Shown here one piece after another: positions 17,830 to 55,000 of a DNA stretch of 64,000 nucleotides. Source of the DNA: Tubulanus polymorphus (Eukaryota; Animalia; Nemertea); assembly GCF_964204645.1 (NCBI RefSeq), contig NC_134033.1, forward strand, positions 7,634,655-7,698,654, in the 5' to 3' direction. The position numbers and the translations under genes are program-made. Position 1 is the stretch's first letter. Each line of letters opens with the position of its first letter. The notes beneath the pieces were generated by a model. It made no database searches and had not been told where the DNA came from. It saw only the letters and a list, made by a program, of their open reading frames with translations.

Positions 17830-17893
17830 AATAATACATGATATAAATCATTGAACTTCTAAAATCAATTTAAAAAAAAAATTTAGTATTAAA

Positions 17894-20800
17894 ATGGAAG
17901 CAAATAAGTACTACTGCCCAGAGAAACAGAAGACAATTAAAAACATAAAAAATAAATTAAACAATAAAAGACCATACATGGAAGATTTAAGAAAATATTT
18001 TAATTCATTAGATAATAAAAAATATATAGAGATAACCGAAGCATTTAAAAGTGATATTGGTCCAGCAGCTATCGAGTTTAAATTTCATAAAGGAAACCCA
18101 TTAGAAGAAAATAAAAAACATTTAGAAAATATGAAAGAAATAATAAAAATAATAACTGATGTTGAATATCCTAAAATTAGTATATCTTCTAAAGTTAAAT
18201 TCATAAAATCTGAAGATAAACCAATATATAATATAAATTCTCATTCACAACATATTATTTCAAAACAACATATAGATGATAAATTAGATAAATGTTATAA
18301 TGAAGTAAAAACTAAAATAGAAGAGAAATATTTTGAAGGATCTGGTTTAATATTTGATGAAATAATATGTATGACTTTACATGTTTATAACACAAAATAT
18401 AATAAGTTAACTAAATCGAAACCAATTGATGAAAATAATGTATCATATTATAAAAGACCAGATATTGAAGCATCGAGTTATATTAAACTACCATTTAAAA
18501 CTAATGCTGTAATAAATGTACAAAATGAAGATGATAAATGTTTTCTATGGACAATTATAAGTTGTTTACACCCAGTTGAAGATTATAATAAACATACTTA
18601 TAGATTAACAAATTATAAACAATTTGAAAATAATTATAAGATAGATAAGTATCCTGTTATAATTAAAAACATCCCAAAAATAGAAAGAGATAATAATATA
18701 AAGATAAATGTATTTGATTTAATCAAATTACCAAATACAAAAGGTAACAATATAAAACATTATACATTAGAACCTTTATATCTATCAAAAGATTATGATT
18801 CAAACGATGTTATAGATATACTATATTATGAGAATCATTATATGTGGATTAAACAAATCGATTTATTTTTTAAATCAGAAAATGATCACCATAAAATATA
18901 TCTATGTAGAAAATGTTTACATAAATTCAGTAATGAAAGGTCATTATTAAATCATAAACAATTATGTGAAAATCATGATTATTGTAAATTAGTTTTACCA
19001 AATGAAAAGGATGAAATATTAGAATTCAAAAAATATGATTACAAAAATAAAGTACCATTTGTAATATATGGAGATTTTGAATCATTAAATAAAGAATTAA
19101 CTGATCAAGATAGAAAAGAAATATATTATAAAAGAAAGAAATTAAATTCTAATGAAAATGATTTTTCAGAAGAACCGCCAATAACAAATACAATTAAAAA
19201 GATTCATCAATCAGCCGCAACTTTCGGGTTATATATTAAATCTGATTATCCAGAACTAATTGAAAGTGAATATTATCATTATAGAAATGAAAATGTTATC
19301 AATCCTTTTTGTGACTTATTAATTGAATATGAAATAAGATTTAGTAAATTATTGAATACAAATATAGAAATTATAATGACAGAAGAAGATAAAGAAGCAT
19401 TTGCGTTTGCAGATAAATGTTATAATTGTGAAAAGATATTTAATTATAAAGATAAAAAAGTAAGAGACCATGATCATTTGAACGGAAAGTTTAGAGGCGC
19501 CGCACATGAGAATTGTAACTTACAAGCTAAGAAAATTAATTTTGTACCAGTAATATTTCATAATTTATCAGGATATGATGCTCATTTATTCATCAAACAG
19601 TTATGTCATAAAATAGAAGAAATCAATAATGAAATAGAAAGATTAAATTCAAATAGACCAAAAGATAAAATACCAACTTATAAATTAAGAATGTTAGCTA
19701 AAACATCTGAGAATTATATATCATTCCAATTTGGTTGCCTAAGATTTATAGATTCATATAGATTTTTAAATATTTCATTAGATAACTTATCAAAATCATA
19801 AGTTGATGATGAATTAAAAATATTAAAACAACACTATCCAAATAATGTTAATTAATAATAATTTTAAATTAATGAGATATAAAGGAGCAATTCCATATTC
19901 TTTCTATAAATCACATAATGATTTTAACATAACTGAATTATTAAAAGAACAATTTTATGATGAATTAAAAAATGAATATGTTAAAGATGAAGTATATAAT
20001 AGAACATTGAATATTTGGAATCACTTCAAAATAGAAAGTCATGGGCAATTGGTAGATTTATATTTAAAATCAGATGTATTATTATTAACCGATATATTCG
20101 AAAGGTTTAGAGATGTAAACCTAAAATATTTTAATATTGATCCTTGTCATTGTTATTCATCACCAGGATTAACATGGGATTGTGGATTAAAATTTACAGA
20201 TATAAAAATGGATTTGTTAACAAATATAGATCAATTACTATTATTTGAAAAATCTATAAGAGGAGGTGTTTCAGGTGTATTAGGTGATAGATATTTCAAT
20301 GTAAATGATAACCCTGGATATAAGTTATTATATATAGATGCAAATAATTTGTATGGTTTGGGCAATGATGGAACCACAACCTTATGGAGTATTTGAATTA
20401 ACTGAAGTTTTACAGAATGAAAATAATGATAAATTTGATTGGAAGAAAAGAATTCTAGATATTGCAGATGATTCAGATACTGGTTACTTCTTTGTTGTAG
20501 ATTTAGAAAATCCTGAAGATAAAAAATTTAAGTCTAGAAATCTAGCATACTGTCCCGAACATAAAACTGTAACTCATGAAGAATTATCAAATTACCAAAA
20601 AAGAATTAAACCCGAAAATCATATTCATACAGAAAAGTTAATGGTAACTCAAGAAGATAAACCTAATTATGTAGTACATTATAGAATGTTAAAGTTTTAT
20701 CTAAAACAAGGAATGATTCTAAAAAAAGTACATAGATATATTTCATTTAGTCAATCTAAGTGGTTAGAAAAATATATAGATTTTAACACCAAACAGAGAA

Positions 20801-21673
20801 CTGAAGCTAAAACTGATTTCGAGAAAGATTTCTTCAAGTTAATGAACAAGGCATTCTATGGTAAGACTTGTGAAAAAATATTAGAAATAGAAATGATATT
20901 GAGTTAGTCAGTAATGGTAAAAGAATTAGACATTTACAAACATATCCTTAGTTCATTGGTAACAGAATATTTGATGAAAATTTAGCTGCAGTTAAAATGA
21001 GAAGAACATCAATGAAATTTAATAAACTAATCTATGTTGGCGCTTCAATTTTAGAATTATCAAAATTACTAATGTATGAATTCTATTATAATGTATTACA
21101 ACCACTTTTTGGAGAAAAACATATAGAAATATTATATTTTGATACCGACAGTTACATATTAAAGAAAAAACTGATAACATAACAGATGATTTAAAAACAT
21201 TAAAACATCATTTTGATTTTAGTAACTATCCTAAAGATCATGAATTGTTTAGCAATGATAATAAAAAAGTCCCAGGGAAGTTTAAGGATGAATTAGGCGG
21301 TGAAGAAATGATAGAGTTCATAGGTATTAGATCTAAAATGTATTCATATAAAACTAAAGAACATGAAGCTAAAAAGTTAAAAGGAATAACTAAAAGTGTA
21401 GTAGAAAAGAATATTCATTTCAAAGATTACATCAATTGTATATTCAATGAAGAAGTTAGAAAACATAAGATGAGATGTTTAAGATCTGAAGATCATGAAA
21501 TGTTTATTGAAGAAATTGAAAAGATAAGTCTAAACCCATTTGATGATAAAAGATATATTTTAGATGACGGAATTCATACAGTTGCATATGGTTGCAATTT
21601 AGATGAATACTTCAAATTTAAAAGAGAAGAAACAAAAGAGAACGAGATAATGAAAAGAATTATAACGTGTTAA
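17894..21673 (+). pseudogene. polB: Protein-primed family B DNA polymerase (pPolB) of Polinton A, disrupted
   Basis: Joins ORFs 17894, 19845, 20338, 20997 and 21245. Motifs: DDKCFLW (OTU-like Cys), VIYGDFES, VRDHDHLNGKFRGAAHENCNL (endonuclease VII-like), FHNLSGYDAH, YIDANNLYG, KLMNKAFYGK, YFDTDS, PGKFKDE, IRSKMY. Stop at 19799-19801 and several frameshifts. Confidence 0.95.
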
Positions 21674-21702
21674 TCAAATTTTAATAAAAATATGTTATTA
21701 AA

Positions 21703-22056
21703 ATGGAGAGTAAACAAGCGCACAGTGAGAACAACAAATTATTTCTAGATAGAATTAAAGATATCACAAATGTAAAATCTGTAGATTATAAATTCAAAAA
21801 GTTAACAGAATTAACAATCCATAAGAAATATCTAATTACATATATTGTTACAGTTACTAATAACTATGGAGATAAATTAGTTATACACTTAGAATATGAA
21901 GGATTAAAAGGAAATACGTATAAATTCAGAACATATTTACCGGATAGATTTCATAGATTATCAAGTGAAGACTTAGAAGAATTATGTTCTGGAGATTTCT
22001 ATTTCGTATACAAAGGTAAGAATGAAAAAGGGCACCATGAAATAGATTTCGAATAA
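21703..22056 (+). CDS. Small conserved Polinton protein (possibly OB-fold ssDNA-binding)
   Basis: Intact 117 aa: FKKLTEL...NYGDKLVIHL...YLPDRF...YKGKNEKGHHEIDFE. A homologous pseudogene lies at 51409. The function is inference only. Confidence 0.7.
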   Translation: MESKQAHSENNKLFLDRIKDITNVKSVDYKFKKLTELTIHKKYLITYIVTVTNNYGDKLVIHLEYEGLKGNTYKFRTYLPDRFHRLSSEDLEELCSGDFYFVYKGKNEKGHHEIDFE

Positions 22057-22070
22057 AATATGTAAAATAA

Positions 22071-22827
22071 ATGGTGGAATTAAAAGAATACAGAATATTT
22101 GTTGATTCAAGAAAACTTACTAATTATAAATCTCATAATTTACTAGTACAATTAGATATTATGAGAATTTAAGAATTGTGTAGATTTAAAATTAGTAAAT
22201 ATAAGTTTATGTAATTCTTTTTATAATATATCGGATAAAACTATTGAAGATAATACTGTTTTAATTCATATTAGAAATGTAGATAAATGGTTTCATCTAA
22301 TTTTAAAACCAGGAGTATATAATTTAGATACATTAGCTCAAGAAATTAATCGAAGAGCACGGTTGAAAATTAGAAGAGATGATAAATTTTTAATTAGATT
22401 TATAAAAAGTGATAGCACAAATAAAATTAAAATAAAGGTATATGATGAAAGTCAACATGCATTTATGGTAAAAAAAACCTATAGCTAAACTGTTAGGAAT
22501 TGTACCAGATACCGTTACAGGAAACGTAGATGGTAATTCAAATATAATACCTTTTACACACTTTTATATTTATTGCAATTTAATCGAGCCTACAAAAACT
22601 TTCGAAGCAACTAAAGAAACAATTTGTAGTTCTAGTATACTAAATATTTTACCGCTAAAAAATGTTAAACAATTTGGAACTCAAATAAATTATAATTTAA
22701 CAGAATGTGATTTCAAACCTTGTATTTCAATAATTTTAAATTAGAAATAAGAAATCATAATGGTTATTTAATTGATTTGAATAACTTATCTGTGATATAT
22801 GAATTAGTTATAAGATGTAAAGAGTAA
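22071..22827 (+). pseudogene. Minor capsid protein (penton), Polinton A, frameshifted
   Basis: Starts MVELKEYRIFVDSRK and is homologous to 41788-42556. The C-terminus FYIYCNLI...LEIRNHNGYLIDLNN is typical of polinton pentons. Confidence 0.75.
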
Positions 22828-22843
22828 TTATTTCACTATATAA

Positions 22844-23203
22844 ATGAATATAACTGTTGGGCCGAGTATATGTTTTGGGTTTGATTTTAAACATGAGAAA
22901 GAAATTAAATTTAACATTAATGATGTAATTACACATATCAAAAATATTGCATTTTCTAATGAAACACCATTTGAGTATGAAATAACAATAGATAAAGAAA
23001 CTTTAAATGTAGAAAAGATTACTAATTTAATTAGAGAATCTTTAAGATTTTATGAATTAGATGAAGATTTTATCATCGATGATATTAAAAAAATAATAAT
23101 TGAAATATATACAAATGAAACTAGTAATGAAATAAATGTTGAAATAATCATCACTAAGATAACTAAATATTTTGATGATAGTAAATTTTTGATAAATAGA
23201 TGA
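22844..23203 (+). CDS. Hypothetical Polinton protein
   Basis: 119-aa ORF with a TAAATG start and a near-identical paralog at 42573. Confidence 0.75.
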   Translation: MNITVGPSICFGFDFKHEKEIKFNINDVITHIKNIAFSNETPFEYEITIDKETLNVEKITNLIRESLRFYELDEDFIIDDIKKIIIEIYTNETSNEINVEIIITKITKYFDDSKFLINR

Positions 23204-23421
23204 GTGATAATAAGTGGATAATAACTGGATTATATAATGGCGCATTACTATCAGTTGGAACTGTTGGTTATTCAATGGTATTAAAAAAAGTATTTAAAAT
23301 TGGAAGTGTTAATGTTGATAGATTTGATATAAATGATATCTTAAGATTAACGTTAGCAGTTACTTTATCCAATTTAACTATTGATTATTTGGAAAAACAA
23401 AAATATATTCCTCCCATATAA
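23200..23421 (+). CDS. Small hydrophobic (putative membrane) protein
   Basis: 73 aa with hydrophobic segments. It differs from 42921-43142 by one residue. Confidence 0.8.
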   Translation: MSDNKWIITGLYNGALLSVGTVGYSMVLKKVFKIGSVNVDRFDINDILRLTLAVTLSNLTIDYLEKQKYIPPI

Positions 23422-23446
23422 ATGTATAATTTTTTTTGTTAAATAA

Positions 23447-23869
23447 ATGGCTTCTGCAATTATAACTATTATAGGATCGGCAATTGTTAACGCTTTAGCA
23501 TTTACTGTTGGTGGTTATTTATTCAAGCATATTGATAAAAATGGTTCATTAACAGAACAAAAAAGACATAACTTAGCATTAGAGAAATATAATAAAGCAG
23601 CAGAAGAATATAGAGAGAAACGACAAAACTATATGGATTATATTAACAAAGAATTATATGATCAGAAGATTTCACACAGAGATTTTCAATCAGTCGATGA
23701 TGCAATGAGTTTATATAACGCAGTAACCAATAAAGAAAAATTACATCTATACAAACCTAAATTATCAGATTATTATACCCCGAGTAAAGAACAACAGAAA
23801 TATGAAATAATATGGATTTTAGGTGGAACTGTTATTGTTATATTTGTAGCATATAAATTTACTTATTAG
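23447..23869 (+). CDS. Putative membrane protein (N- and C-terminal hydrophobic helices, central coiled coil)
   Basis: MASAIITIIGSAIVNALAF...EQKRHNLALEK...IIWILGGTVIVIFVAYKF; paralog at 43167. Confidence 0.8.
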   Translation: MASAIITIIGSAIVNALAFTVGGYLFKHIDKNGSLTEQKRHNLALEKYNKAAEEYREKRQNYMDYINKELYDQKISHRDFQSVDDAMSLYNAVTNKEKLHLYKPKLSDYYTPSKEQQKYEIIWILGGTVIVIFVAYKFTY

Positions 23870-23888
23870 TAATTTTTTTTCTAAATAA

Positions 23889-24323
23889 ATGGAAGATAAA
23901 GTTGATAGTATTGATATTATGTCTCATGATATAAATTAAACTAAATTAAAAATATATTTAGAAAAACAAATATTAGAATTTGAAAGTGACTTAAAGATAA
24001 AAAAGAAAAAATATTTAAAATCTAAAATTATATATTATTTGATTATAAGTGGTTCGGTTACAATTAGTTCTGTTATAACATTTCTAGCAATATTCAGTCC
24101 ATTAACACCTTTAGCTATATCAATTGGTGTATTAGGATTAAGTTCAAGTGTTTTAACTGGTATAAGTTCAAAATAAAATATAAAAAGTAATAAAGAAAAA
24201 CTTAAAACTAATATAAAAGAAATTAATAAATTAAAGAATACACTAGATTATATAATAAGTTTAAATGGCCATTTAACAGTTGAAGAACAAGATAAATTAT
24301 TAAAAGAATTAATAAATTATTAA
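23889..24323 (+). pseudogene. Putative two-TM membrane protein, disrupted
   Basis: TAAATG start; encodes IISGSVTISSVITFLAIFSPLTPLAISIGVLGLSSSVLTGI with internal stops; paralog at 43609. Confidence 0.65.
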
Positions 24324-24339
24324 TTTTTTAATTATATAA

Positions 24340-25639
24340 ATGGGGTTTCCAAAAGCTTTTCAATATAATAAATCAATTAAATATAATATTCCTGCAATAG
24401 ATTTTTAAAAAAATATTACATATAAAAATGTGGTTTTAAATTCATTAACTAATTTAGAAATTTATGTTACTGAATCACAGTTTTTTATTTCTAAAATGGA
24501 AAATATATTTAATACATACGAAGTTACTTTTACTCGAGATGAATACCATATATATAAAGTAAAATCTAATATGAAATATTGGCAGAATCAATTAAATTTT
24601 GCTGTTTATTGTGCAACAACAGGATGTTGAATAAGTTGGAATGATCATTTAAATAACTTAGATAAAAATTTGAAGTATTCTGATTCAAAAGTAATTCACA
24701 CAATATTTAGATTTCACACATATTTTCAAATCAGAATAATATTAAATGAATTAGAATGTCCTTTACCCGGGTCTAAATATTTTAAAGAATTGGATAATAA
24801 TATTAATCTACCTAAGTTTTATAAAATATGTAATGAATTTAATATAAATATTAATTCCAACTTTAGAGCGCATGGTATATTGCAAGGTGTTGGTGAAGAG
24901 TATGTAATAAAAAGAATTGATTATATGCATAGAATTGGAGCTTATCATAATTATAAAATTGATAATTATAATGGTTGGGTTAATTTCATTTTAGAAAATG
25001 GTGAAGGTTTTACAAAATCAGGTATACAAAGAATAAATCAATCTATAAGAACTTATTTTATATATATTCTAGGTGCGCAAGTTGAAACAAGATCACCAAT
25101 AATTGGAAATGATAACACTTCATTCGATGCGCAGAAACAATTTAAAGTATTATTTGAAGATTCAATTCATAATGATAAAAATAGATCGATTCCAGAAAAC
25201 ATTGTAAGATATCAAAATTATTTAGATAAATCACATATTAGATTAGATTATTGTATAGGCCCTAATCTATTTATTATTCCTAATGATTTAGTATTAAAGA
25301 TGGGAAATATAATTGGTTACAATAATCTAATTAAAACTGCAACTAAATAAAAAGATTATTTCTGCTCCAAAATTAATGGAAGGTGAAAAAAATAAAAAAC
25401 ATATTCAATCAACAGAAACTAAAACTAAGAATATTAAATTAAAAAATGATTCTAAAATAAAAGATTACAATACATCAGAAAATATAAAAACTGATAATAG
25501 TGCCGTATGGCACCCACACGGTGATATTCAACATGAAATAATTAAACTAAATGATGAAAATAAATCCCATGAAAATACTAAATTAGCTATAACTTGTAAA
25601 GGAATTGTAATCGGAGGAATATTATATTTTAAATTTTAA
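24340..25639 (+). pseudogene. Conserved Polinton protein (YWQNQLNFAVxCATxGC) with C-terminal TM anchor, disrupted
   Basis: Fragments 24430, 24670 and 25376 align with the longer ORF 44040-45251. Confidence 0.75.
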
Positions 25640-25654
25640 TTTTTTATTATGTAA

Positions 25655-27133
25655 ATGGCAGAAGGTGGAGAAGATTATAAAATGGAAGGCATGGGAAAAA
25701 ATAATGAAGGATATATTGATGATGATTATAATGATGCAGAAACTAATATTGATGATGGTAATGAATCAGCATATAATTCTAATTTAGCAGACAGTGGTTC
25801 TAAAGGCCAATCAACAGATGAATTTGATAGAAGAACTAGATCGAGAATAAATCCTGAAAATGAAAATCCAGATTTAGTAAAACAAAATTTAGAATATAAT
25901 GAATATATTTATAATTTCAAACCTACATTTGAAAAATCTGGATATAATATAAATGCCAGAGGCGCCAGACTTTTAGTACAAGAATTAAAATCTTTAGATG
26001 GTGAATATTATTATCATTTGAAAGATGATTATTATATTGATATCACTTATAAAAATCAAAACAAAATATTAGCAGGATCAGCTTTGGAAAAATTAGAACC
26101 AGATAGAATTAAAAGAATAAGTTATAATAGTAATGAAATAGAAGATGTAACACGAGAAGAAATAAATCAAAATAGAAGAGTATTTAAACAAAGAATTAAT
26201 GATTTATTTGAAACAATCGATAATAATTTAGAAACAGAAACAACTTCTGAACAGAATATAACTTCCAAAACTAGTAAACCTAATTCAAAAGGAATTCCAA
26301 TTGAAAAACTTTTACCGAATGGATTACTTGATGCAACAGATCAACAATTAGAAGATTTAAATAATATACTTTCTGATAAAGCAATAAGAGAAATTATTAG
26401 TATAAGAAATGAAGCTGATAAAATTGCGCATGATAAAAGTATAAGAGATTTAAAAATTAGAACTTTAGAAGATGAATTATTTAAATCAGGAAAAGAATCG
26501 GAACAACTGAAATTAGATAGAGATAAGAAAGTTATTGAAGAAATTGAATTTAAAAAAAGAAATGCATATTTAGAAAAAGAAATTGATGATTTAGAATATA
26601 ACATTGGGCCGAGTATATGTTTTGGGCAATTACAAAAAGAAGAAATTAAATTATTGGTAAAATCATATGATTACAATATAAATAGATTAAAAGTTATTTT
26701 TAAAGATTTGTTGATGAAACCAGATTCTAAAATATCATTGAAAGATAGAATAAAATTATTATTTAAGTTAGAAGGAATAACAATTCTTTCAATTCTAACA
26801 GCTGTAACTATGTTATTTACAACAATTGGTTTAGCAATATCAAATGCTTTAAAATCTACTCCTACTCCAAATAAACCAGATAAACCCCCGAATGACAATA
26901 ATTCTATACAAGATAAAGTTAAGGATGGTTTAAAGAAATTAGCAAAATATTTATGGGAACTATCAAAGAAATCTGCTGCAGCATTGCCAGGAGTTATTGC
27001 ATCAATTGTTGGTTTTATATTGAAATCTGCAGGGAATATTATTAACTTTGCTGCTGAACATATTATTTTATTTTTAATTACAGTTGTAAGTGCTATTATT
27101 TTTGGGTTAGTAAACATGATAAAAAATAAATAA
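25655..27133 (+). CDS. Large coiled-coil protein with C-terminal multi-TM region
   Basis: Intact 492 aa: acidic N-terminus, coiled coil, then GITILSILTAVTMLFTTIGLAI...ALPGVIASIVGFIL...IILFLITVVSAIIFGLV. Confidence 0.85.
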   Translation: MAEGGEDYKMEGMGKNNEGYIDDDYNDAETNIDDGNESAYNSNLADSGSKGQSTDEFDRRTRSRINPENENPDLVKQNLEYNEYIYNFKPTFEKSGYNINARGARLLVQELKSLDGEYYYHLKDDYYIDITYKNQNKILAGSALEKLEPDRIKRISYNSNEIEDVTREEINQNRRVFKQRINDLFETIDNNLETETTSEQNITSKTSKPNSKGIPIEKLLPNGLLDATDQQLEDLNNILSDKAIREIISIRNEADKIAHDKSIRDLKIRTLEDELFKSGKESEQLKLDRDKKVIEEIEFKKRNAYLEKEIDDLEYNIGPSICFGQLQKEEIKLLVKSYDYNINRLKVIFKDLLMKPDSKISLKDRIKLLFKLEGITILSILTAVTMLFTTIGLAISNALKSTPTPNKPDKPPNDNNSIQDKVKDGLKKLAKYLWELSKKSAAALPGVIASIVGFILKSAGNIINFAAEHIILFLITVVSAIIFGLVNMIKNK

Positions 27134-27153
27134 TTAATTTTGTTGTTAAATAA

Positions 27154-28376
27154 ATGAGTGTAAGTTATATCAATCCTTCTAAGAATCATAGAATATCTAA
27201 TGCTATTAAAGCAGAAAGATCACATCATATAATTACTCATAACCCTTCTAATATTAATCCCGATGAAACTTTATATGTTAGAATTCCTCGATTAACACAA
27301 AATACTTTTTACGTTCCAAATAGTATTTATTTATCTGCCGATATAAAAGTAATCGGTAATAATAATAATTATGTTGTTGATAATGTTGGAAGATGTTTGA
27401 TCAAAAAATTAACTATAAAGATTGGTCCAGAAACAGTTTTCTCATTAGATGATTATAATTTATTTATGCATTATAAAGATTTATGGTTAACTAAAGAAAT
27501 AATATGATATTTCAAGGAATCCAATCAGAAAACCAAAATAAATTAAGATCAGAAGCTAATAGCGCAATATTAACTAATGCTGTAGATAAATTGATAAAAA
27601 GTATATATGGAAGCAAATATAAAATTCCATTAGACTTTGAATTGATAAATAATAATGCACCTTTATATAAATACGCAATTCAAGAAGACGTTATATTCGA
27701 AATAACATTTGCTCCTGTAAATGAAATTGTAATATCTAGCGTTAATAAAGATATGAGTTATAAATTATCGAATATATGTTTAGAATATGACACAGTAACT
27801 GATGAAAATATTTCAAGTATAATTCAAACTAAATACAATCAAGGATTTTCATTATTATATGATTATATTGATAAATTTAAAACTGTAACTATTAATGCAA
27901 ATGATGAAATTATTAATGAGAATATTAACTTCCCAAGAAGATCTATTAAAGGTATATCAATATTTTTTACCATTGCAACATATACTGATAATTATTATAA
28001 TCCTGAAATAACAAAAGTAGAAATAACTATCGAAGGAATAGCAAATAAAATATTTTGTCAAGGAATGAGAATGATAGATCAATGGCCAGACATTAGAATA
28101 CATTTTATGAATGAAAAAGTAAAATCATCTGAAAATTGTAACATTAATCAAATTGATTATTATACCGGTAATAAATATGCATTATGGTTAGATTTTAGAA
28201 CAACAGAGGATAATTCATTACACGGTTCTGGAAAAAAATTACAAAATACAAAAGATGGAATACAATTATTCATGACAAAGAATAAAGGAATCAAAAATTT
28301 TAAAATGCACATTCATATTATATCTGACGCGCAATTAAATATTGTAAATTCTCAATTAAATAGTGTTATGCATTAA
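27154..28376 (+). pseudogene. Major capsid protein (double jelly-roll), Polinton A, one frameshift
   Basis: ORFs 27154 and 27504 are joined across a 7-nt deletion relative to B. About 410 aa, beta-rich, with NPSNINPDETLYVRIP and KYALWLDFRTTEDNSLHGSG. Position and size fit MCP. Confidence 0.75.
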
Positions 28377-28408
28377 AATTTTAACTTTAATAAAAATTTA
28401 TATAATAA

Positions 28409-29281
28409 ATGGAAGGAGGTAAAGTATATAAACATATTCCATACATCGATACACTTGAAAATAATGATGGTTTATATTATGTAATACCTTGTAATATAGC
28501 TTTGATATTTGATCCTATTTTCAAAATTTATAAAACTAAACTAATAGAAATCGATAATAATGAAAGTGAAGTTGTTGATAATTTAAGTAATGTAATTGAT
28601 AATAATGTAATACCTTCTACATCTAATAATGTAATACCTACTACATCTAATAATGTAATACCTACTACATCTAATAATGTAATACCTTCTACATCTAATA
28701 ATGAAATAATATCAAATGTTAGTGAAAATAGAAATTATTGTGGATATTGTAAAAGTGAATTTTCAAACGCTAGATCAAATTGGAATAAACATATGAATAC
28801 AAGGGTACATATTACTAATGTTATAGATCGTGTTGGTAAAAAAGAATTTATAGAACACCCATTTATATATGTTACAAAGTTTGTTTCAAATCAAAAAGTA
28901 AATGGTAAAGAATTATATGAAGATTTATTATTAGCGACACCTAATAAAGATGAATTAGATTTAACCGATGCTATTAAATTAGAATCAAACATTGTAAATG
29001 AAATATTAGGAGCAAACACTAATAAAGATAATAATGAAAATGGTGCCGTATGGCACCCACATGGTGATATAGTTACAGGAGAGCGCATTGATAATAAAGA
29101 TTCTATGAAACTTAAATCAGAAAATAAAGATATAGTTGAGATGACTAATAAGTATATCAATAAACCAATTATTTATGAAGATTCGGTAGAGCATTTGAAT
29201 AAATTGTTAGGGTCTGATGATGAATTGGAGAGTGATTCAGAAAGTGATTCAGAAAGTAATTATCTAACACTCAAAAAGTAA
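28409..29281 (+). CDS. Hypothetical protein with C2H2-like zinc finger, NNVIP(S/T)TS repeats and acidic tail
   Basis: 290 aa; CGYC...WNKHMNTRVH; 21-bp tandem repeat at ~28600-28700. Confidence 0.75.
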   Translation: MEGGKVYKHIPYIDTLENNDGLYYVIPCNIALIFDPIFKIYKTKLIEIDNNESEVVDNLSNVIDNNVIPSTSNNVIPTTSNNVIPTTSNNVIPSTSNNEIISNVSENRNYCGYCKSEFSNARSNWNKHMNTRVHITNVIDRVGKKEFIEHPFIYVTKFVSNQKVNGKELYEDLLLATPNKDELDLTDAIKLESNIVNEILGANTNKDNNENGAVWHPHGDIVTGERIDNKDSMKLKSENKDIVEMTNKYINKPIIYEDSVEHLNKLLGSDDELESDSESDSESNYLTLKK

Positions 29282-29286
29282 TAAAG

Positions 29287-43589: not shown

Positions 43590-43608
43590 TAATTTTTTTT
43601 CTAAATAA

Positions 43609-44068
43609 ATGGAAGATAAAGTTGATAGTATTGATATTATTCCTCATGATATAAATAATAGAAAAACAAATATTAGAATTTGAAAGTGACTTAAAGATAA
43701 AAAAGAAAAAATATTTAAAAAGTAAAATTATACATTATTTGATTATAAGTGGTTCGGTTACAATTAGTTCTGTAATAACATTTCTAGCAATATTCAGTCC
43801 ATTAACACCTTTAGCTATATCAATTGGTGTATTAGGATTAAGTTCAAGTGTTTTAACTGGTATAAGTTCAAAATTGAATATAAAAAGTAATAAAGAAAAA
43901 ATTAAAACTAATATAAAAGAAATTAATAAATTAAAGAATACACTAGATTATATAATAAGTTTAAATGGTCATATAACAGTTGAAGAACAAGATAAATTAT
44001 TAAAAGAATTAGTTAATTATTATTTTTTTTATTATATAAATGGGGTTTCCAAAAGCTTTCCAATATAA
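43609..44068 (+). pseudogene. Two-TM membrane protein (paralog of 23889), frameshifted
   Basis: TAAATG start at 43609; hydrophobic core in ORF 43739. Confidence 0.65.
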
Positions 44069-45349
44069 TAAATCACATGAATATTATAAATATAATACTC
44101 CAGCAATAGATTTTAGTAACATGATAATATATAAAAATTTAGTTTTACCTTCATTGATTAATTTAGAAATTTATGTTACTGAAACAAACTATTTTATTTC
44201 TAAAATTGAAAATATATTTAATACACATGAAGTTACTTTTACTCGAGATGAATATAATATATATAAAGTAAAATCTAATATAAAATATTGGCAGAATCAA
44301 TTAAATTTTGCTGTTCATTGTGCAACAGCTGGTTGTGGTGTAAGTTGGCATGATCACTTGAATAACTTAGATAAAAATTTGAAATATTCTGATTTAAAAT
44401 TCATTCATAAAATATTTAGATTTCATGTATACTTTCAAATTAGAATTATATTAAATGAATTAGAATGCCCTTTACCTGGATCAAAATATTTTAAAGAATT
44501 GGATAATAATATTAATCTATCTAAGTTTTATAAAATATGTAATGAATTTAATATAAATATTAATTTCGATTTTAAAGCGCATGGTAAATTGCAAGGTGTT
44601 GGTGAAGAGTTTGAAATAAAAAGAATTGATTATATGCATAGAATTTCAGCTCATCATAATTATAAAATTGATAATAATAATGGTTGGGTTTATTTTATTG
44701 AATCTTATATTGAAGGATTTACAAAACCTGGTATACAAAAAATAAATCAATCTATTAGAACTTATTTGATATGTATTTTAGGTGCACAAGTTGAAACAAG
44801 ATCACCAATAGTTGGAAATAATAGTACTTCATTTGATGCGCAGAAACAATTCAAAGTATTATTTGAAGATTCCATTCATAATGATAAAAATAGATCGATT
44901 CCAGAAAACATTGTAAGATATCAAAATTATTTAGATAAATCACATATTAGATTAAATTATTGTATAGGACCTAATCTATTAATTATTTCTAATGATTTAG
45001 TATTAAAGATGGGAAATATAATTGGTTATAATAATCTAATTAAAACTGCAACAATAAACAATTCAATCGGATTAAATGATATAAATAAAAAGATTATTAC
45101 TGCTCCAAAATTAATGGAAGGTGAAAAAAATAAAAAACACATTCAATCAACAGAAACTAAAACTAATAATATTAAATTAAATAATGATTCCAAAATAAAA
45201 GATACAATACTACAGAAAATATTAAAACTGATAATATTCAACATGATATAATTAAAACTGATAATGATAATAAATTACATGAAAATACTAAATTAGCTTT
45301 AACTTGTATAGGAATTGTTATAGGAGGAATATTATATTTTAAATTTTAA
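44040..45349 (+). pseudogene. YWQNQLNFAV-family protein with C-terminal TM (paralog of 24340), frameshift near the 3' end
   Basis: 403-aa ORF plus an out-of-frame tail ...KLALTCIGIVIGGILYFKF*. Confidence 0.8.
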
Positions 45350-45365
45350 TTTTTTTATTATATAA

Positions 45366-46818
45366 ATGGATGTAGAAGGTGGAGAAGATATTGGAATGGA
45401 TCCTTTTGATGAACCTGGCATAACTGATGAACAACAACCTGATTTTAGTGAAACAAGTTTTAATGACGGTAATGAGCCAGGATATAATAATAATTTAAAT
45501 ATGCCTGATTATATTAAAAATGCAGAATCACAATTAAATCCTGAAAATTTAGACCCAGGTTTAGTAAAAGAAAATTTAGATAATTTAAACAAAATACCTA
45601 AATTAGAAGATTTAATTGAAAAATCTAAACTTAACATAAACGATGAAGACGTTGGACCTTTAGTAGATAAATTAAGATTTTTAGATAATGGTAAATGTTA
45701 TTATAATTTGAACGGTGATTATTATATTGATATCACTTATTAAAAAAAAATAATAACAAAATTAACTTTGAGAAAATTAGATCCAGATAGAATTAAAAGA
45801 ATTAGTAATAGGAATGTAATAACTGATGTTATAAAACAAGAATTAACTGATAATGATATAGACGTATTTAAACAAAGAATTAATGAATTATTTGAAATAA
45901 TCAAAAAGAAATCAGAAACAGAAACAACTTCTGAACAGAATATAACTTCCAAAACTAGTAAACTTAAATCAAATAAAGTTCTAATTGAAAAACTTTTACC
46001 GAATGGATTACTTGATGCAACAGATCAACAATTAGAAGATTTAAATATATTTTCTGATGAAGCAATTAGAGAAATTATTAGTATAAGAAATGAAGCTGAT
46101 AAAATTGCACATAATAAAAGTATAAGAGATCAAAAAATTATGTATTTGGAAAAAGAATTAACTAATGCAAATAAAGAAATAGAACAAATAAAGTCTGATT
46201 TAGATCATCAAGTAATTGATGAAATAGAATATAGGCAAAAAGAATTACGTTTAGAAAAAGAAATTAATAATTTAAAAGATAATTTAGAAGTATAGAAAGA
46301 AGAAATTAAATTATTATTAAAATCATATGATTATAATATTAATAGATTAAAAGTTATTTTTAAGATTTGTTGATTAAACCAAATTCTGAAATATGATTTT
46401 AAAAGATAGAATAAAGTTATTATTTAAATTAGAAGGAATAACAATTCTTTCAATTCTAACAGCTGTAACTATGTTATTTACAACAATTGGTTTAGCAATA
46501 TCAAATTCTTTGAAATCTACTCCTACTCCAAATAAACCGGATAAACCACCAGGTAATAATTCTATACAAGATAAAGTTAAAGATGGTTTAAAGAAATTAG
46601 CAAAATATTTATGGGAACTATCTAAAAAATCTGCTGCAGCATTACCAGGAATTATTGCATCAATTGTTGGTTTTATATTGAAATCTGCAGGAAACATTAT
46701 TAACTTTGCTGCTGAACATATTATTTTATTTTTAATTACAGTTGTAAGTGCTATTATTTTTGGGTTAGTGAATATGATATCGAAAAGATATCAAGAAAAA
46801 ATAATAAAAAATAAATAA
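45366..46818 (+). pseudogene. Coiled-coil / multi-TM protein (paralog of 25655), disrupted
   Basis: ORFs 45366, 45768 and 46393. Confidence 0.8.
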
Positions 46819-46838
46819 TTAATTTTTTTGTTAAATAA

Positions 46839-48116
46839 ATGAGTGGGAGTTATATAAGTCCTTATAAGATTTCTAGAATATCTAATGCTATTAAAGCAGA
46901 AAGATCACATCATATAATTGCACATAATCCTTCAAATATTAATCCCGATGAAACTTTATATGTTAGAATTCCTAGATTAACACAAAATACTTTTTATGTT
47001 CCAAATAGTATTTATTTATCAGCTGATATAAAAGTAACTGGTCATGATAATAATTATGTTGTCGATAATGTTGGAAGATATTTGATTAAAAAATTAACTA
47101 TAAAGATTGGTCCAGAAACAGTTTTCTCATTAGATGATTATAATTTATTTATGCATTATAAAGATTTATGGTTAACTAAAGAAAATAGAAGTAATATGAT
47201 ATTTCAAGGCATCCAATCAGAAAACCATAATAAATTAAGATCAGGAGCTAATGACGCAATAGTAACTCGTGCCACAGATAATTTGATAAAAAAGATTTAT
47301 GGAAGCAAATATAAAATTCCATTAGATTTTGAATTGATAAATAATAATGCACCTTTATATAAATATGTAATTAAAGAAGATATTATATTTGAGATAACAT
47401 TTGCTCCTGTAAATGAAATTGTATTATCTAGCGTTGTTAAAGATATGGGTTATAAATTATCGAATATATGTTTAGAATATAACACAGTAACTAATGAAAA
47501 TATTGCTAGCACAATTCAAACTCAATACAATTTCAATTCTCGATTTTCATTATTATATGATTATATTGATAAATTGATAACTATTATTATTTTTTATTGA
47601 TAAACTGTAACTATTAATGCAAATGATGAAATAATTAATGAGAATATTAACTTCCCAAGAAGATCTATTAAAGGTATATTCATATTTTTTACCATTGCAA
47701 CATATTCTAATGGCACAATAAAGGTTGATAATTATTATAATCCTGAAATAACAAAAGTAGAAATAACTATTGAAGGAATAGCAAATAAAATATTTTGTCA
47801 AGGAATGAGAATGATTGATCAATGGCCAGAAATTAGAAACCATTTTATGAATGAAAAAGTAAAATCATTTGAAAATTGTAATATTAATCAAATTGATTAT
47901 TATACCGGCAATAAATATGCATTATGGTTAGATTTTAGAACAACAGAGGATAATTCATTACATGGTTCTGGAAAAAAACTACAGAACACTAAAGATGGAA
48001 TACAATTATTCATGAAAAAGAAAAGAGGAGACAAAAATTTTAAAATGCACATTTATATCATATCTGACGCACAATTAAATATTGTAAATTCACAATTAGA
48101 TAGTATTCAATATTAG
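46839..48116 (+). pseudogene. Major capsid protein, Polinton B, disrupted at ~47580-47610
   Basis: ORFs 46839 and 47805 are highly similar to A's MCP. Confidence 0.75.
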
Positions 48117-48146
48117 AAATATAAAGTTAAAATTAACGATATATAA

Positions 48147-49274
48147 ATGGGAGGTAAAAAAACTCCTAATACTAAAGAACAATATTTAAGAAATTTATAT
48201 TACAACCCTGAGAGTTCGGTTGCTTATTCTTCTACCAAAAATATATGGCGTCAAGTAAAACAAGATAAATTAGATAAAATAATCCCACAAAATTTAGTTA
48301 AATATAAAGATATAAATGAATTTATGTTAGAACAACCAACATACACAACACATAAAAAAATTGTTAGAAAATATAAAACTCGTAAAACTATGGTAAGTTA
48401 TGTAGATCAACAGTGGCAAGGAGATTTAATTGATATGAAAAATGTTAAGAAAGATAATGATGATTATTGGTGGTTATTGAATATAATTGATATTTTTAGT
48501 CGTTATGTATGGAGTTTCCCACTTTATAGAAAAGATGCTGTACAAACATCAAATGTTTTAAGAAAATTTCTTTCGGATGATAAACTAAAACCAGAAAAAA
48601 TACAATTTGATGATGGAAAAGAGTTTGATAATTCACTTGTTCATGAACTCTTAGATAATCATAATATTAAATATTTTTCAACAAAATCGGATAAAAAAGC
48701 AGCAGTTGTTGAACGATTTAATAGAACATTAAGAACAAGAATGTGGAAATATTTTACAGCAAATAATACTTTTAAATGGATTGATGTTTTACCAAAATTG
48801 ATAGAAGGATATAATAATTCTTATCATTCTTCTATTGGAATGAAACCTATTGATGCTAGAAAACCTGAAAATGCTGAAATTGTTTGGAATAATTTATATG
48901 GAGCATTTCTTGTAGATGATTTTGGTCAACCTAAATTTAAAGTTGGTCAAAATGTTAGAATTTCTAAGTATAAAAAGATATTTGACAAAGGATACGATCG
49001 AAATTTTACTAGAGAAATATATAAAATAAAAAAAGTAATAACAACAAAACCATATGTCTATAAATTAGAAGATTTAAATGGTGAAGAAGTTGATGGGTAT
49101 TTTTACGAAGAAGAATTAAGTTTAACTACTGAAAATCTAGAACAAGAATATAAAATTGAAAAAGTATTAAAAACAAAAACTATTAAAAGAAAAAAATATT
49201 CTTTAGTAAAATGGGTTGGATGGCCAGATAAATTCAATGAATGGATATTATCAAGTAAAATTAAAAATATATAA
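48147..49274 (+). CDS. int: rve integrase with C-terminal chromodomain, intact
   Basis: 375 aa; DDE residues in WQGD, QFDDGKEF and VVERFNRTL; chromodomain YKIEKVLK...YSLVKWVGWPDKFNEWI. Confidence 0.95.
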   Translation: MGGKKTPNTKEQYLRNLYYNPESSVAYSSTKNIWRQVKQDKLDKIIPQNLVKYKDINEFMLEQPTYTTHKKIVRKYKTRKTMVSYVDQQWQGDLIDMKNVKKDNDDYWWLLNIIDIFSRYVWSFPLYRKDAVQTSNVLRKFLSDDKLKPEKIQFDDGKEFDNSLVHELLDNHNIKYFSTKSDKKAAVVERFNRTLRTRMWKYFTANNTFKWIDVLPKLIEGYNNSYHSSIGMKPIDARKPENAEIVWNNLYGAFLVDDFGQPKFKVGQNVRISKYKKIFDKGYDRNFTREIYKIKKVITTKPYVYKLEDLNGEEVDGYFYEEELSLTTENLEQEYKIEKVLKTKTIKRKKYSLVKWVGWPDKFNEWILSSKIKNI

Positions 49275-49737
49275 ATGAATAAAGAATTATTTATATTTGA
49301 GCCTCATAATATGTTAATATCTGGCGTAACAAATTGTGGAAAAACTTATTTTATATTAAATTTATTAGAAACTGTTTATGAAAACTATTTTGATAATATA
49401 GTATTATTTTGCCCAACATATGAATTTAATCAAACTTATGATAGAAATATTACTAGAAATAATAAATTTATTATATTAGATCCTAAAACAGTAAAAGAAA
49501 ATTTAGATAATTGTATAAAAATAGCAATTGATAGTTATAAAGGATCAAATACATTATTCACTGTAGATGATTGCGCAAATTTACATGATTCAAAAGTGAG
49601 AGAAAGTGAGTTATGTTATCTAGCTTTCTCTGGGAGACATTTTGGGATAACAACTTGGGTATTAAATCAAAAATATAATTCAATTGTTAAAGACTTTAGA
49701 GAAAACATTAGATTTCTAGTTTTATTCTATAATAAAT
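49275..49737 (+). pseudogene. Packaging ATPase, Polinton B, 3'-truncated
   Basis: GVTNCGKT, LFTVDD, SGRHFGIT. Homology to A stops after FYNK. Confidence 0.9.
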
Positions 49738-49872
49738 TACCTTAAAATGGTTCTCCCAAGAACCCTGTCAAGAACCATTTGATAATATTGAAGAACCTTT
49801 AGGGGTTCTCCCTGGGAGGCAAGCCCAAGAACCCCTAAAGGTTCTTAGGTAGAACCCTTTGTTCTTTGAGTG
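49738..49872 (-). mobile_element. Terminal fragment of a non-autonomous DNA transposon (CACT-ended, EnSpm-like)
   Basis: The minus strand starts (TA)CACTCAAAG, with repeated and inverted AGAACC/GGTTCT motifs (agaacctttaggggttct...agaacccctaaaggttct). Confidence 0.5.
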
Positions 49873-49874
49873 TA

Positions 49875-51346
49875 CGTATTTTTTACACAGTTTTGGCAAT
49901 TTTCCTTTCTTAACTTTCATGACTTTTAGCCAAACGCGATCAGTAATCTGAAACTGAGGTTTGATGCCTCTTTGTCGAACTGAGTTTTATACTTATTTTG
50001 AGCTCTTCTAATATTTTCGTTAGCGATATTTCGTGATATGACAAGCTGCCTTAAAAACATCTTGACCAAATAACATGTGGTAAGGCCTAAAACCTGAACC
50101 TTCAGTTGAGGGAACATGCCTATAACTCATCATAACACTTGGCATTAGTGTATACCAATAAGTCTGGTCCTGGTTACAGTACGACCTAAGCGACTGCCAA
50201 ATGTACTGGTTAGTTCTCTAGCAAACTGAGTTTGATTGAGGATGGTACGGAGCGGTAAAATGTTGTTTCACGTTAAACAATTCACAGAGAGCTCCAACAA
50301 ACTTAGACATGAATGTTTTACCACGATCAGAGACTAAAGAATGAAGCGTACCAAACCGCGAAAATATCTCTTTAAAGAGAACTTTTGCTACCTCTGTTGT
50401 TTCTTGAGTATTGAGAGGAAACGCCTCGGGCCATTTACTCCAGCTATCTACCACGAGTAAGATATGCTTATTACCATCAGGAGTCTCTGGAAGATTGCAA
50501 AGGAAGTCAATGTGCCATCTGGAGAATAAGCCTTCGATCAGTAATGGTTGTAAGGGTGTTGGATGACTATGATAATTCCGTTTGACCTGTTGGCAATTCT
50601 CACAAGTAGAAACATATTTCCTGCAATCTTCATACATGGAATCCCAATGATATTTATTACGTAAAACACCATAAAGACGATCTCGACCCTGGTCTCAACC
50701 TCCCACTAATGAATCGTGGTAAGATTTCAATATTTCCGACCGTAATGACCTAGGAACTTCAAGAACTGGGATGACCTTCTCGGCTTTAGGAATACCAGTA
50801 ACTCTAGGCGTATACAAATAACGTGCCATCGATCATACCATATTGGTCGGCCCTCCAACTGAGCTTTCGAAACAGTTTTTCAGCGTTGACAGCATATGAT
50901 GGATCTAACTTATGTTCCAACATGTGACAAACTTCGGGGCAATTCATCTGTAAGTGCGTTATATTAGCAGGTTTAATCAGTTCAAACTCCTTATAAGTAT
51001 CAGGAGTTAACTCGGCCACCACGGGGCTAGTATAATCAAACACGACTTCATAAGACTGAGATCCATTTGTCATTGCTGTGAAAACAGTTTCTTGTGAAGG
51101 ATCATCAGGTCTAGGAGGAGGAGGTTTATCATAATCACCTCTACTTAAACCGTCGCAATTGCCATTTTTCTTACCCGGTCGGTGTTCAACAGAAAAATTA
51201 TGTGCTTGAAGAGCCAATTCCCAACGTCTTATACGTTTATTTAGTCGATTTTCATGAATATACGTCAAACTCTTGCTATCAGTATACACAGTGAATTCAT
51301 TTCCAATCAGGTAGGGATGAAAATTCTGAATTCCTTCAATCAGTTC
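49875..51346 (-). pseudogene. Ty3/Gypsy pol remnant (RNase H end, H2C2 zinc finger, integrase core)
   Basis: FHPYLIGNEFTVYTDSKSL...RWELALQ...VEHRPGKKNGNCDGLSR; CENCQQVK; WHIDF...VVDSWSKWPEAFPL...VSDRG...PYHPQSN. Confidence 0.92.
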
Positions 51347-51408
51347 AGATCAGAGGACGAGAGGACGACACACCACTCATCACCACAAGTAATTTTTTCT
51401 TTTAATAA

Positions 51409-51735
51409 ATGGGAGATAGAAAAGCATTCTTAGCGACAATAAACAACAGAATAAAACCAGCAAAAAACAATTTGAAATAAAAAAGGTTAGTTGATGTTAC
51501 AAAAGATATTGAACATAAAATATTAAAATTAGAAAAGATAAAAACTAAATACGGAGAGAAAGTATCAGCAAATTTAAGTTACCGTTATGTTAGTACAACG
51601 CGAGAATTTAAAGTATTTTTACCTGATAAATGGGTTTCATTGAGTATAGAGGAATTATAAGATTTAGAAGGATTTAAAATAATTTACCATGGAAAAAATG
51701 AAGATGGTCATCATGATTTAGAAGTTGTTGATTAA
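51409..51735 (+). pseudogene. Homolog of the 21703 small protein
   Basis: ...KTKYGEKVSANL...KVFLPDKW...*...IIYHGKNEDGHHDLEVVD*; one frameshift and one stop. Confidence 0.7.
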
Positions 51736-51794
51736 AAAAATAAATTGATTATAAAATTAATTGAAGATTAAGAATCCGAAATGACTTATTTAGA

Positions 51795-52030
51795 CGATTC
51801 AATTGATCGAGGCACTGACGAGAACGGTCGATTGCGTTGTGCTATGTACAGTGAGTGCGCGTAACAACAGCTGCGCTTGGATAGATCGACGTGGCGAGGC
51901 ATTGACGAGAACGGTCGATAGCGTACTGCTATATATAGTAGTACAGTCATTGTGTACCAGCTGCGCTCGGATAGATCGATACAGTGAGGCACTAACGAGA
52001 ACGGTTGATAGCGTGTTTGCTATATACACA
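51795..52030. repeat. ~88-bp GC-richer tandem repeat (about 2.7 copies)
   Basis: gaggca(c/t)t(g/a)acgagaacggt(c/t)gat occurs three times. Confidence 0.8.
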
Positions 52031-55000
52031 GAGGAAGGTGACCGCGCACAGATGATCCAGGTTCATTTAATTGTTTAATGAATTAAATATATTTTTGCTT
52101 TTTTAAATCACTCATTACCACAAGTAATTTTTTCCTAATAAATGGGAGAGAGTGAGTACCAGACAGAAAAAAATGGTGTTAATGAAAATCAATATTATTG
52201 TACATATTGTAAAAAATACATTTATAAATCTAATAAATCTCGGCATGAAAAAACTGCAAATCATTAAAAAAATGTTATCGATTTTGAAACTCCAGAAAAT
52301 TGCAATGAAAGAAAAGAACAATTAGAAAATATGAATGTGGATGAAATAAAATGTGAAGTTTGTAATGAATTTATAGCAAAAAGGAATTATAAAAGACATC
52401 TCGAATCGCAACAACACAAAATTTACGAAACAAAATTTTTAACAAAATTTAAGTAATAATGTTTTAGGAACAGGTTATTTTGATGATAACCCTCAACAAG
52501 TAAAAAAACAAGTTTCAAAAACTAAATCTATTTCAAATAAACCTTATATGGAAAATGTTAGATATTATATCGATTCAATAGAAATAAAAGATACAATTGA
52601 AATTTTAGAAACATTACGTAGTAAACTTGGGCCTGCAGCTATTATATTTAGATTTTTTAAAGGAGCAACAAATTGAAATCATGGAAAAAATACTAGATTT
52701 TGTAACAGATGTTGAATATCCAAAAATTATTATTTCTCGAAAAGTAAGTTTCATCAAATCAGAAGTAAAAATGGATTATAATATTCAATCACACTCTGAA
52801 GAAATAAATTCAAAAACACAAATAAAAGAGAAATTAGAAAAAATATCTAATGAATTTAAAAGACATATTGAAGAAAGATATTTTGAGGGTTCTGGTTTAA
52901 CATTGAATGAAATTATATTTTTTGATTTAAATGTTTATAATACAAAAAGGAATAAAGCATCAAAAAGTAAAACAATGTTTAAAAATGATTCAAACTTTAC
53001 AACAGAAAAGGATATTAAAGCATCATCTTATATTAAATTAGCATTTACAACAAAAGCAATTATAAATGTTCAAAATGAAGACAACAAATGTTTTCTGTGG
53101 TCAATTATTAGTTGTTTACATCCAACTCAGGAAAATGTTTGTAGAATAACAGATTACCGGAAATACGAAACATTATTTGAGATTGATCAATATCCAGTAA
53201 CTATAAAAATGATACCTAAAATAGAAAAAGTTAATAATTTAAAAATTAATGTTTTCGAATTAATGCAATTACCAGAGACAAAAGGTGAAAACATTAAAGA
53301 TTATACATTAGAAGCTTTATATTTAACAGAATATTATGATGATGAAAATGTTATAGATTTGTTATATTACATAAAAGATAAAAATGAACATTATATGTGG
53401 TTTGATTTATTCTTTAGAACAGAAAGTGATCATCATAATAAAATGTATCTATGTAGAAAATGTTTATCTAAATTTATGACTGAGAATGCATTATTAAAAC
53501 ATAAAGAATAATGTGATAATGAAGATTTTTGCAAATTAATAATGCCAACAAAAAAAGATTGTAAGTTGAAATCTACTAATTATTTTTTTAAAAATATTGT
53601 TCCATTTGTAATTTATCGGTTCCTGAACTTTGCTGAAAAAGCTGAATCACTGAAACGCTGCAATAAAAACGCTGAAATTTCAGGGAATTTCCGAAAAATG
53701 CCGAAATTTCAGGGAATTCCCGAAAAACGCTGAAATCGTGCTAGGTACCGACAATACACGTTTTGAAATATTTTCCGGGCCGGTGTCCGCTGCCGAGTCC
53801 TGAACTGTGTTTTAGTCTCTACCTTCGGTTACAAAGACATGCATGGACAGTATGTGTGGAGTATACTTCTAGAGGTCCACTTTTTGGACAAATTGATTCG
53901 CTTGAAATCCGGATTTTTAATGCATACAGGCAGCATAATGGGGAAAACACATTCACAAACTGTGCAAGCCAACTTAAACACAATGCTCAATATTCCCTGC
54001 AAGACGCAAAATATCTTATTTGAACGTTCATTTATAAAACATGGAGCAACTTTTCTTTTGTCAACACGTTGATGGGCGACGGACTATGGTATTCTCTGAA
54101 GGAGGTAAATTAAATTTGACAGCTAGTTATATAAATGATGCAGCTTATGGACAAAAGGGATCTAACTAAATTTCTTTTTAATTCACTGTTGAATGGAATG
54201 GAATGGATTGACGCCAATGGCATGCAGTAGGCCCCTACGTATGAGTCATACTAATTAGCGTCAACCAATTAATCTAAATCGGGCAAACCATTCAACCCAA
54301 CAACTGTGAATAATTCATTTGCTGTGGTGTGATAATAATTAGTTTTTTTGAAGAAATGACATACCAACTGTTACAACAATGTACCGATTCTTATTATTAG
54401 ACTACTACTGAATCTATAAAAGGAGGAGTCATAGACAAAGTTGATTTGCTTAGCTGCTGGAGATACTTCTTGTCAAGTACATCATCTCAAGTACTGGGTG
54501 TTTTGTAAGTTTTATTTCAGTATTTATTTACTAAGTGCTGTTCCCTCGGACCTCAGGGCTTTCAAACTAGGCCAACCCCATAGGCTATATAGTCCAGGGT
54601 GTATTAGCCAATATTCTTTTATTTCCTACTTAAATGCACCTTTTTCTATTTTTAGACTCAGGCTTGGAATGTGCAAATTTTTTGAGATACTGAGAAATCA
54701 GCAGGCACCAGTAAACTTCGACTGCGAAATTTGCAGCAGGATAGCTGAACGACACAATTTTTAAAAATAAAATGGCTATTCGAATGCTATTTCAATAATA
54801 ACTTGATTCAACCAGAGAGAAATGAGCCAATTGCGGATGTACAGTACACCCACTTTTCTTCCCTGTTTCCTGGTACCAAATTTTTAGTCTTAAGCTAAGC
54901 GATATTCTAACGGTTCCTGAACTTCGCTGAAAAAGCTGAAACACTGAAACGCTGAAAATAAAACGCTGAAATTTCAGGGAGTTCCAGAAAAACGCTGAAA

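Follow-up and report, generated by a model that had tools for sequence, protein, structure and literature searches.

Polinton expression and particle formation have long been an open question, and a stretch of the genome of the nemertean Tubulanus polymorphus raises it in a concrete form: which RNA polymerase reads the genes of such an element? The window analysed here, 64,000 nucleotides (nt) of contig NC_134033.1 (positions 7,634,655 to 7,698,654), contains one complete Polinton, element A (17281-35071); a second, B (about 35518-49745), which is truncated on the right; and pieces of a third, C. The original prediction, made from the letters alone, held that Polinton genes in this window start at promoters of the poxvirus late type, composed of a T run, a short spacer and TAAATG, and that the elements may depend on a co-infecting helper virus; as a whole, this interpretation was partly supported. 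We propose, with moderate confidence, that A, B and C belong to one capsid clade of integrase-bearing Polintons in which an A/T run followed by TAAATG is a likely late-type promoter read by a co-infecting large DNA virus. This proposal draws on observations: the motif with its spacing, its restriction to the clade, head-to-head spacers of 19-30 nt and the absence of a recognisable RNA polymerase gene.

TAAATG starts in the window and in related loci

All 27 start coordinates given in the prediction were the A of an ATG in the predicted context, with that at 41719 lying on the minus strand. In element A, 12 of 16 starts read TAA-ATG and two read TAAA-ATG, as had been claimed; the start at 23200 has TAAAT just upstream, and that at 31380 has none. 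The expected enrichment at the true starts of A was confirmed (P = 3.7e-11 against the TAA frequency of the same upstream regions, 0.074). ATGs outside the frames of long open reading frames (ORFs) were preceded by TAA at 39/595 positions in A and 30/475 in B, or about 6.5%, while the control with in-frame internal ATGs, as first proposed, is void because TAA would there be a stop codon. The 86 occurrences of TAAATG in A and B comprise 23 starts and 63 non-starts; TT at -13/-12 was found in 15/23 of the former and 9/63 of the latter (P = 1e-5), and A at -4 in 22/23 and 21/63, respectively. The predicted sites in B and C are also real, but those in C are copies, 88-89% identical, of the first start of B, and A and B are themselves alike. 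Counts within the window are thus not independent, because the structural modules of A and B are 86% identical and the C sites copy B, and as A, B and C are 75-89% alike over their shared parts, the real test lies in their relatives.

Capsid alignment retrieved 22 metagenome loci, in which a start was accepted automatically when the alignment of its ORF with a window protein began close to the N-terminus. The near group comprised 16 loci with capsid identity of at least about 50%, and the distant group five; L022 and L023 were excluded as distant fragments. TAA-ATG was present at 51 of 57 homology-anchored starts in the near loci, several of which are near-duplicates (L002/L003, L009/L010, L012/L013), a redundancy that weighs against our proposal, and at 0/15 starts in the distant loci. 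Three of the six near starts lacking TAA-ATG have TAAAT a few bases upstream. GC content is not the explanation, because the motif is present in L006 (44% GC, 3/3 starts) and L007 (40%, 3/4) and missing from L015, L019 and L021 (29-30% GC). In a capsid tree, a quick one of 44 rows without bootstrap, a single branch separated near from distant loci (SH-aLRT 99; 4 of 500 shuffles gave a value as low). The TAAATG motif is real and marks out a clade.

Architecture of the start signal and its possible readers

Across the near clade, T is most frequent at -13 and -12 (74% and 84%), counted from the A of ATG; this is 9-10 nt before the T of TAAAT, and the peak is preceded by A at -18/-17. In vaccinia, late promoters likewise overlap the start codon with TAAAT(G) and have a conserved T as the tenth base upstream, and intermediate promoters have TAAA with an A-rich upstream part (PMC11980589). 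Both late-type traits, TAAAT overlapping the start codon and T about 10 nt upstream of it, were thus found in the clade, and starts that are A-rich upstream resemble the intermediate class (PMC11980589). The likeness to vaccinia (PMC11980589, PMC6211774) concerns promoter sequence, as start sites are here predicted. About half of the starts have an A run or an A-run/T-run junction in place of the predicted pure T run. Among 96 hand-curated starts, some from unassigned ORFs, T-run cores stand mostly before virion-module genes and A-run cores before the packaging ATPase, the Zn-finger gene and some replication genes, though not strictly. The claim that most of the TAA triplets are not upstream stop codons held, since only 5 of the 86 TAA starts in this set close an upstream open frame of at least 50 codons.

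Six divergent gene pairs (L003, L009, L010, L011, L012 and L013) have only 19-30 nt between their ATGs, with TAAATG on both strands and often one A-run/T-run core in common. Furthermore, G is favoured at +4 (34/50, background 0.25), and T at -3 runs counter to the Kozak preference, as had been noted, with a purine there in only 3/50 starts; in the distant loci, 16/17 starts have one. G at +4 combined with T at -3 fits an mRNA that begins in the A run of TAAAT and gains further A by slippage, as in vaccinia and the yeast linear elements (PMC6211774). We infer that transcripts would start inside TAAAT, so that the T at -3 would not be part of the mRNA. On coding strands, the observed/expected ratio of AATAAA was 0.99 in the window, 0.94 in the near group and 0.76 in the far group (12 against 15.8), at most a trend in the fitting direction for avoidance of a poly(A) signal. 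TTTTTNT was depleted in the window, near and far groups alike and does not discriminate.

The statement that no RNA polymerase is encoded stands for complete element A, in which none was recognised. Among the ORFs scanned with Pfam, several of which have no assigned function, neither RNA polymerase nor TBP had a match, the largest unassigned ORF family had no polymerase fold match, and complete A gave no match to VLTF3 or to TBP/TFIIB.

The signal is not specific to poxviruses, despite the poxvirus-type name that the prediction gave it, for giant-virus contigs have the same starts: TAA-ATG precedes 7/16 ORFs in L028, 6/11 in L029, 4/5 in L040 and 6/6 in L044, counts that are inflated because the contigs were picked by motif scan. 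The IMG/VR motif scans yielded seven loci in one case and, from a head-to-head scan of one 64th of the collection, 120 loci, most of which look like chance matches. L044, L040, L028 and L029 all start genes with a T/A run and TAAATG, and L044 also has a 24-nt head-to-head spacer (L044:2504-2529). The nearest structures to the L044 capsid, of the nucleocytoplasmic large DNA virus (NCLDV) type, are PDB 6ojn (E 6e-113), which we take to be from an iridovirus, and 7yjl (E 5e-104), presumably from a marseillevirus. The helper may thus be a poxvirus or an iridovirus/marseillevirus-like virus.

Distant Polintons carry another start signal. In L017:1302-9012, L019:2050-2756 and L018:133, TATA[CG] or TATATA stands 5-22 nt before ATG at 13/17 starts; in L017 alone it is found at 9/10 starts (background 0.022, for a pattern picked after viewing the data). 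This motif sits too near the ATG for a TATA box of RNA polymerase II (Pol II), and TATATA is a late motif of the asfarvirus type (PMC11788076).

A proposed helper-dependent promoter and its alternatives

Considering these results, we propose the following scenario for the TAAATG clade. Integrated copies would remain silent until late factors of the helper reach them, as proposed for mavirus. Transcription would then begin inside TAAAT, where slippage would furnish the mRNAs with 5' poly(A) leaders, and PolB, integrase and virion genes would be expressed together. The element would replicate with its own PolB, use its own capsid for packaging and its own integrase for re-integration. The sequences thus suggest that the element family likely parasitises a co-infecting large virus. 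Some of the support once claimed for helper dependence has nevertheless fallen away. Terminal hairpins do not serve, as B has none, nor does extreme AT content, as L006 carries the motif at 44% GC, and the intein, which had been counted in favour, is real by its anatomy but its donor was not found. The hairpin of A and the VLTF3-like gene described below are weak as additional support.

Several observations weigh against helper dependence. Independent DNA reads labelled as the same species, and covering 16300-25560, had a depth of about 170-1270 over the element and 0.35 in one flank bin, values which are not copy numbers, and 1219 reads were clipped at 17281 and ran into mixed flanks. The element family is multi-copy in this genome, since element depth far exceeds flank depth and the clipped reads enter mixed flanks. 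An autonomous transposon accounts for such abundance more easily, and the abundance favours autonomy or repeated germ-line access. Because PolB and integrase carry the signal too, a nuclear copy would need helper factors in the nucleus. Iridoviruses have a nuclear phase, and to a helper of this kind integrated copies would be more accessible than to a poxvirus. L017, which lacks the motif, is also compact, with a 33-nt divergent spacer; distant Polintons are thus compact without TAAATG, and compactness alone needs no helper. Finally, a VLTF3-like gene is present both in B and in motif-less L017; such a gene is already known from some Polintons (PMC11131425), and viruses with VLTF3 but without polymerase are thought to be nuclear (PMC11253617).

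These points make an autonomous nuclear element the alternative to be taken most seriously, possible though distinctly short of probable. Host Pol II, together with element factors such as the VLTF3-like protein or the product of an unassigned ORF, would initiate at or near TAAAT as an unusual, element-specific initiator, and the signal would perhaps have been inherited from a large DNA virus and now be read without a helper. High copy number, the VLTF3-like gene in B and L017, the compact start motif that distant Polintons have of their own, and the mriyaviruses, which encode VLTF2/3 but no RNA polymerase and for which a nuclear life is proposed (PMC11253617), all agree with this. However, complete A lacks a VLTF3, TBP or TFIIB match. 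Ordinary Pol II core promoters and 5' untranslated regions do not fit into spacers of 19-30 nt that hold two starts, and a Pol II transcript starting upstream would have T at -3 despite the clear preference for G at +4. The clade may instead have arisen as a helper-dependent satellite whose present copies spread by other means and no longer need the motif. Broken genes in all three window copies and the few deviating starts (17894, 21703 and the L014 capsid) agree with such a relic, which is nevertheless improbable: elements down to about 50% capsid identity and from 20 to 44% GC retain the motif at nearly all their starts, which implies selection until recently, and the terminal inverted repeats (TIRs) of A are 99% identical.

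It is more improbable still that the motif belongs to the upstream gene, as its poly(A) signal (AATAAA) or stop codon, and overlaps the next start because a nuclear genome is compact there. AATAAA does end at the A of ATG in 41/96 curated starts, and TAA closes a long upstream frame at the five starts mentioned above. Divergent starts, however, have no upstream gene on the same strand and are equally TAA-ATG (16/17, against 60/67 tandem starts), and AATAAA, found at 26/67 tandem and 7/17 divergent starts, is no commoner in tandem. Coupling to the upstream gene is thus largely refuted, because divergent pairs carry TAA-ATG on both strands. An artefact of composition in very AT-rich intergenic DNA can hardly be credited, even though A and B are about 76% AT, given the enrichment over local composition in A and the presence of the motif at 40-44% GC together with its absence from distant loci at 29-30%.

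Comparison with known systems shows which parts of helper dependence have precedents. The window elements are like Polintons/Mavericks (Polintoviricetes; 'adintoviruses', PMC8502044) in PolB, rve integrase, A32-like ATPase and capsid protein, and in TIRs beginning with AG and a 6-bp target duplication. They differ in the clade-wide TAAATG starts, and in that A has no recognised protease gene: an adenovirus-type maturation protease, common but not universal in Polintons, had no Pfam match among the ORFs scanned, complete A included. Unlike in vaccinia, nearly every gene has the signal, PolB and integrase among them, and neither a polymerase nor a capping enzyme was recognised. Polinton-like viruses found with entomopoxviruses are also small capsid-encoding elements proposed to parasitise animal poxviruses; they were co-sequenced with the helper and encode a protease and a tyrosine recombinase or no detectable integrase (PMC11296320), whereas the present elements have an rve integrase and the promoter signature and are known without a helper. 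The main text of that report never uses the word 'promoter'. Mavirus, which depends on CroV, is likewise an integrating element with PolB, rve integrase and promoters of the helper's late type, but it has a protist host, belongs to the virophage lineage and uses another motif, and its case was shown by experiment; its model proposes that a late factor of the helper enters the nucleus (bioRxiv 10.1101/068312). The TAAATG elements would work like virophages, with no claim of membership in Lavidaviridae. The yeast pGKL elements, which are cytoplasmic and virus-like, are linear and have a TAAAN initiator and 5' poly(A) leaders, but they are extrachromosomal and carry genes for an RNA polymerase and a capping enzyme of their own (PMC6211774).

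Helper-matched promoters are already known from mavirus, PgVV and the pacmanvirus transpoviron. A literature search, which left out most subscription papers and all supplements, found no description of the TAAATG signature for integrase-bearing Polintons. Poxvirus hyperparasites (PMC11296320) and helper-matched promoters are known; such a promoter in integrase-bearing Polintons is apparently new. A likely late promoter of the large-virus type throughout a clade makes Polinton expression directly testable. If helper dependence is true, it explains why healthy animals show no Polinton particles, carries provirophage biology of the mavirus type beyond protists to the integrase-bearing elements of what is probably an animal, and points to an unknown large DNA virus of the host. 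More tentatively, and as a possibility we would not call likely, canonical animal Polintons may not all be autonomous transposons, and whole clades of them may be endogenous hyperparasites, the TAAATG clade tuned to a pox- or iridovirus-like polymerase and the distant relatives to an asfarvirus-like polymerase that recognises TATATA. In that case, promoter class would predict large viruses yet to be discovered, as well as an antiviral system of animals that is inducible and heritable.

Structure of the elements and their surroundings

Element A, 17.8 kb in length, is flanked by the 6-bp target-site duplication GATCAT (17275-17280 and 35072-35077) and bounded by TIRs of 549 nt each (17281-17829, plus strand; 34523-35071, minus strand), which are 99% complementary and give termini AGT...ACT. 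PolB, an rve integrase, a packaging ATPase with a putative double-jelly-roll capsid protein, AG...CT TIR ends and a 6-bp target duplication identify the family as Polintons. The outer 411 nt of each TIR (17281-17691 and 34661-35071) form an imperfect palindrome, rich in AT, at whose inner end the terminal AGT sequence recurs in inverted form; the left one folds as an imperfect hairpin at -123 kcal/mol, a value without shuffle control. The same palindrome isomer is found at both ends of A, and the inferred end of B has no palindrome.

On the plus strand, A begins with a protein-primed PolB in broken pieces, with an endonuclease VII-like insert (17894-21673, start TAAA-ATG), followed by a 117-aa ORF (21703-22056, start TAAA-ATG) for which a phi29-type SSB is a weak lead (score 0.86). 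The virion module (22071-28376; several genes broken, 7/8 starts TAA-ATG) contains a probable penton gene at 22071, labelled from position and conservation alone, ORFs at 22844, 23200, 23447, 23889, 24340 and 25655, and the major capsid protein gene at 27154. A Zn-finger-like ORF (28409-29281) has TAA-ATG with an A-run core. The minus-strand block (29675-33323; 4/5 starts TAA-ATG) carries the packaging ATPase (30278), the integrase (31380), ORFs at 31746 and 32341 and an HNH-like gene (33323). Between this last gene and the right TIR, a short repeat that contains a palindrome (TGCGCATT..AAACCGCGCA) occurs three times at 33445-33740. Among Pfam matches, PolB (PF03175) gave E 5e-8 in B and 1.7e-4 in A; the packaging ATPase matched Pox_A32 (E 2.7e-12), the integrase of B matched rve (E 2.4e-10) and the capsid matched Capsid_N weakly (E 0.0016). 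Many genes are broken, and all three window copies are affected.

The inferred left end of B (35518-35602, plus strand) begins AGTAAT, resembles the A terminus, has no hairpin and contains T8 with TAAATG, so that the first ATG lies only 85 nt from this end. The broken PolB region of B (35603-40415, plus strand) contains an intein-like insert with a LAGLIDADG domain (39151-39959, plus strand; PF14528, E 1.2e-7), which sits in the YFD/TDSY motif (motif C) of PolB and is missing from A. Some giant-virus polymerases carry inteins at this same site. A fragment matching Pox_VLTF3 (40412-40789, minus strand, E 3.2e-6) follows; no homologue of it was found in A, nor at E 0.001 among proteins of near length. 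In the remaining region (41279-49745; 10/11 starts TAA-ATG), a Zn-finger ORF (41719, minus strand) stands head-to-head with the plus-strand virion module, and the capsid (46839), integrase (48147) and ATPase (49275) genes are included; the exception, 41788, has TAAAT one base upstream. C consists of two copies of the B-type first promoter (ATGs at 51409 and 52142), then a broken PolB (51344-52150, plus strand).

The three Polintons stand nearly in tandem. Insertions into them lie at 49750-51300, 53600-57260 and 57900-58800: a fragment of a retroviral-type integrase cuts B, and repeats together with a presumably reverse-transcriptase-like fragment interrupt the PolB of C. Rfam gave no match in 17000-53000, and host satellite-like repeats with periods of 154 bp and 63/73 bp occupy 2400-15100.

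A conserved protein of 400-440 aa (44040-45251; L001:2996-4324) has 1372 relatives at 50% clustering; the model of the conserved 442-aa ORF was confident (pLDDT 88.5) but had no fold match (best Z 3.8), and a 119-126-aa ORF had no usable Atlas match. Two relatives in the TAAATG clade encode a deoxynucleoside kinase (L001:10340-10981 and L007:2895-3377; PF01712, E ~1e-31). In IMG/VR, neither the capsid nor the ATPase nor the intein query returned relatives, and the kinase query returned one distant giant-virus-like contig. Capsid relatives with 54% identity (P0011 cluster) are filed under Bartonella assemblies, on contigs shorter than 2 kb, and are probably host DNA carried along. An animal host is likely: one capsid relative takes its name from a bivalve, and the nearest Atlas clusters occur most often in arthropods.

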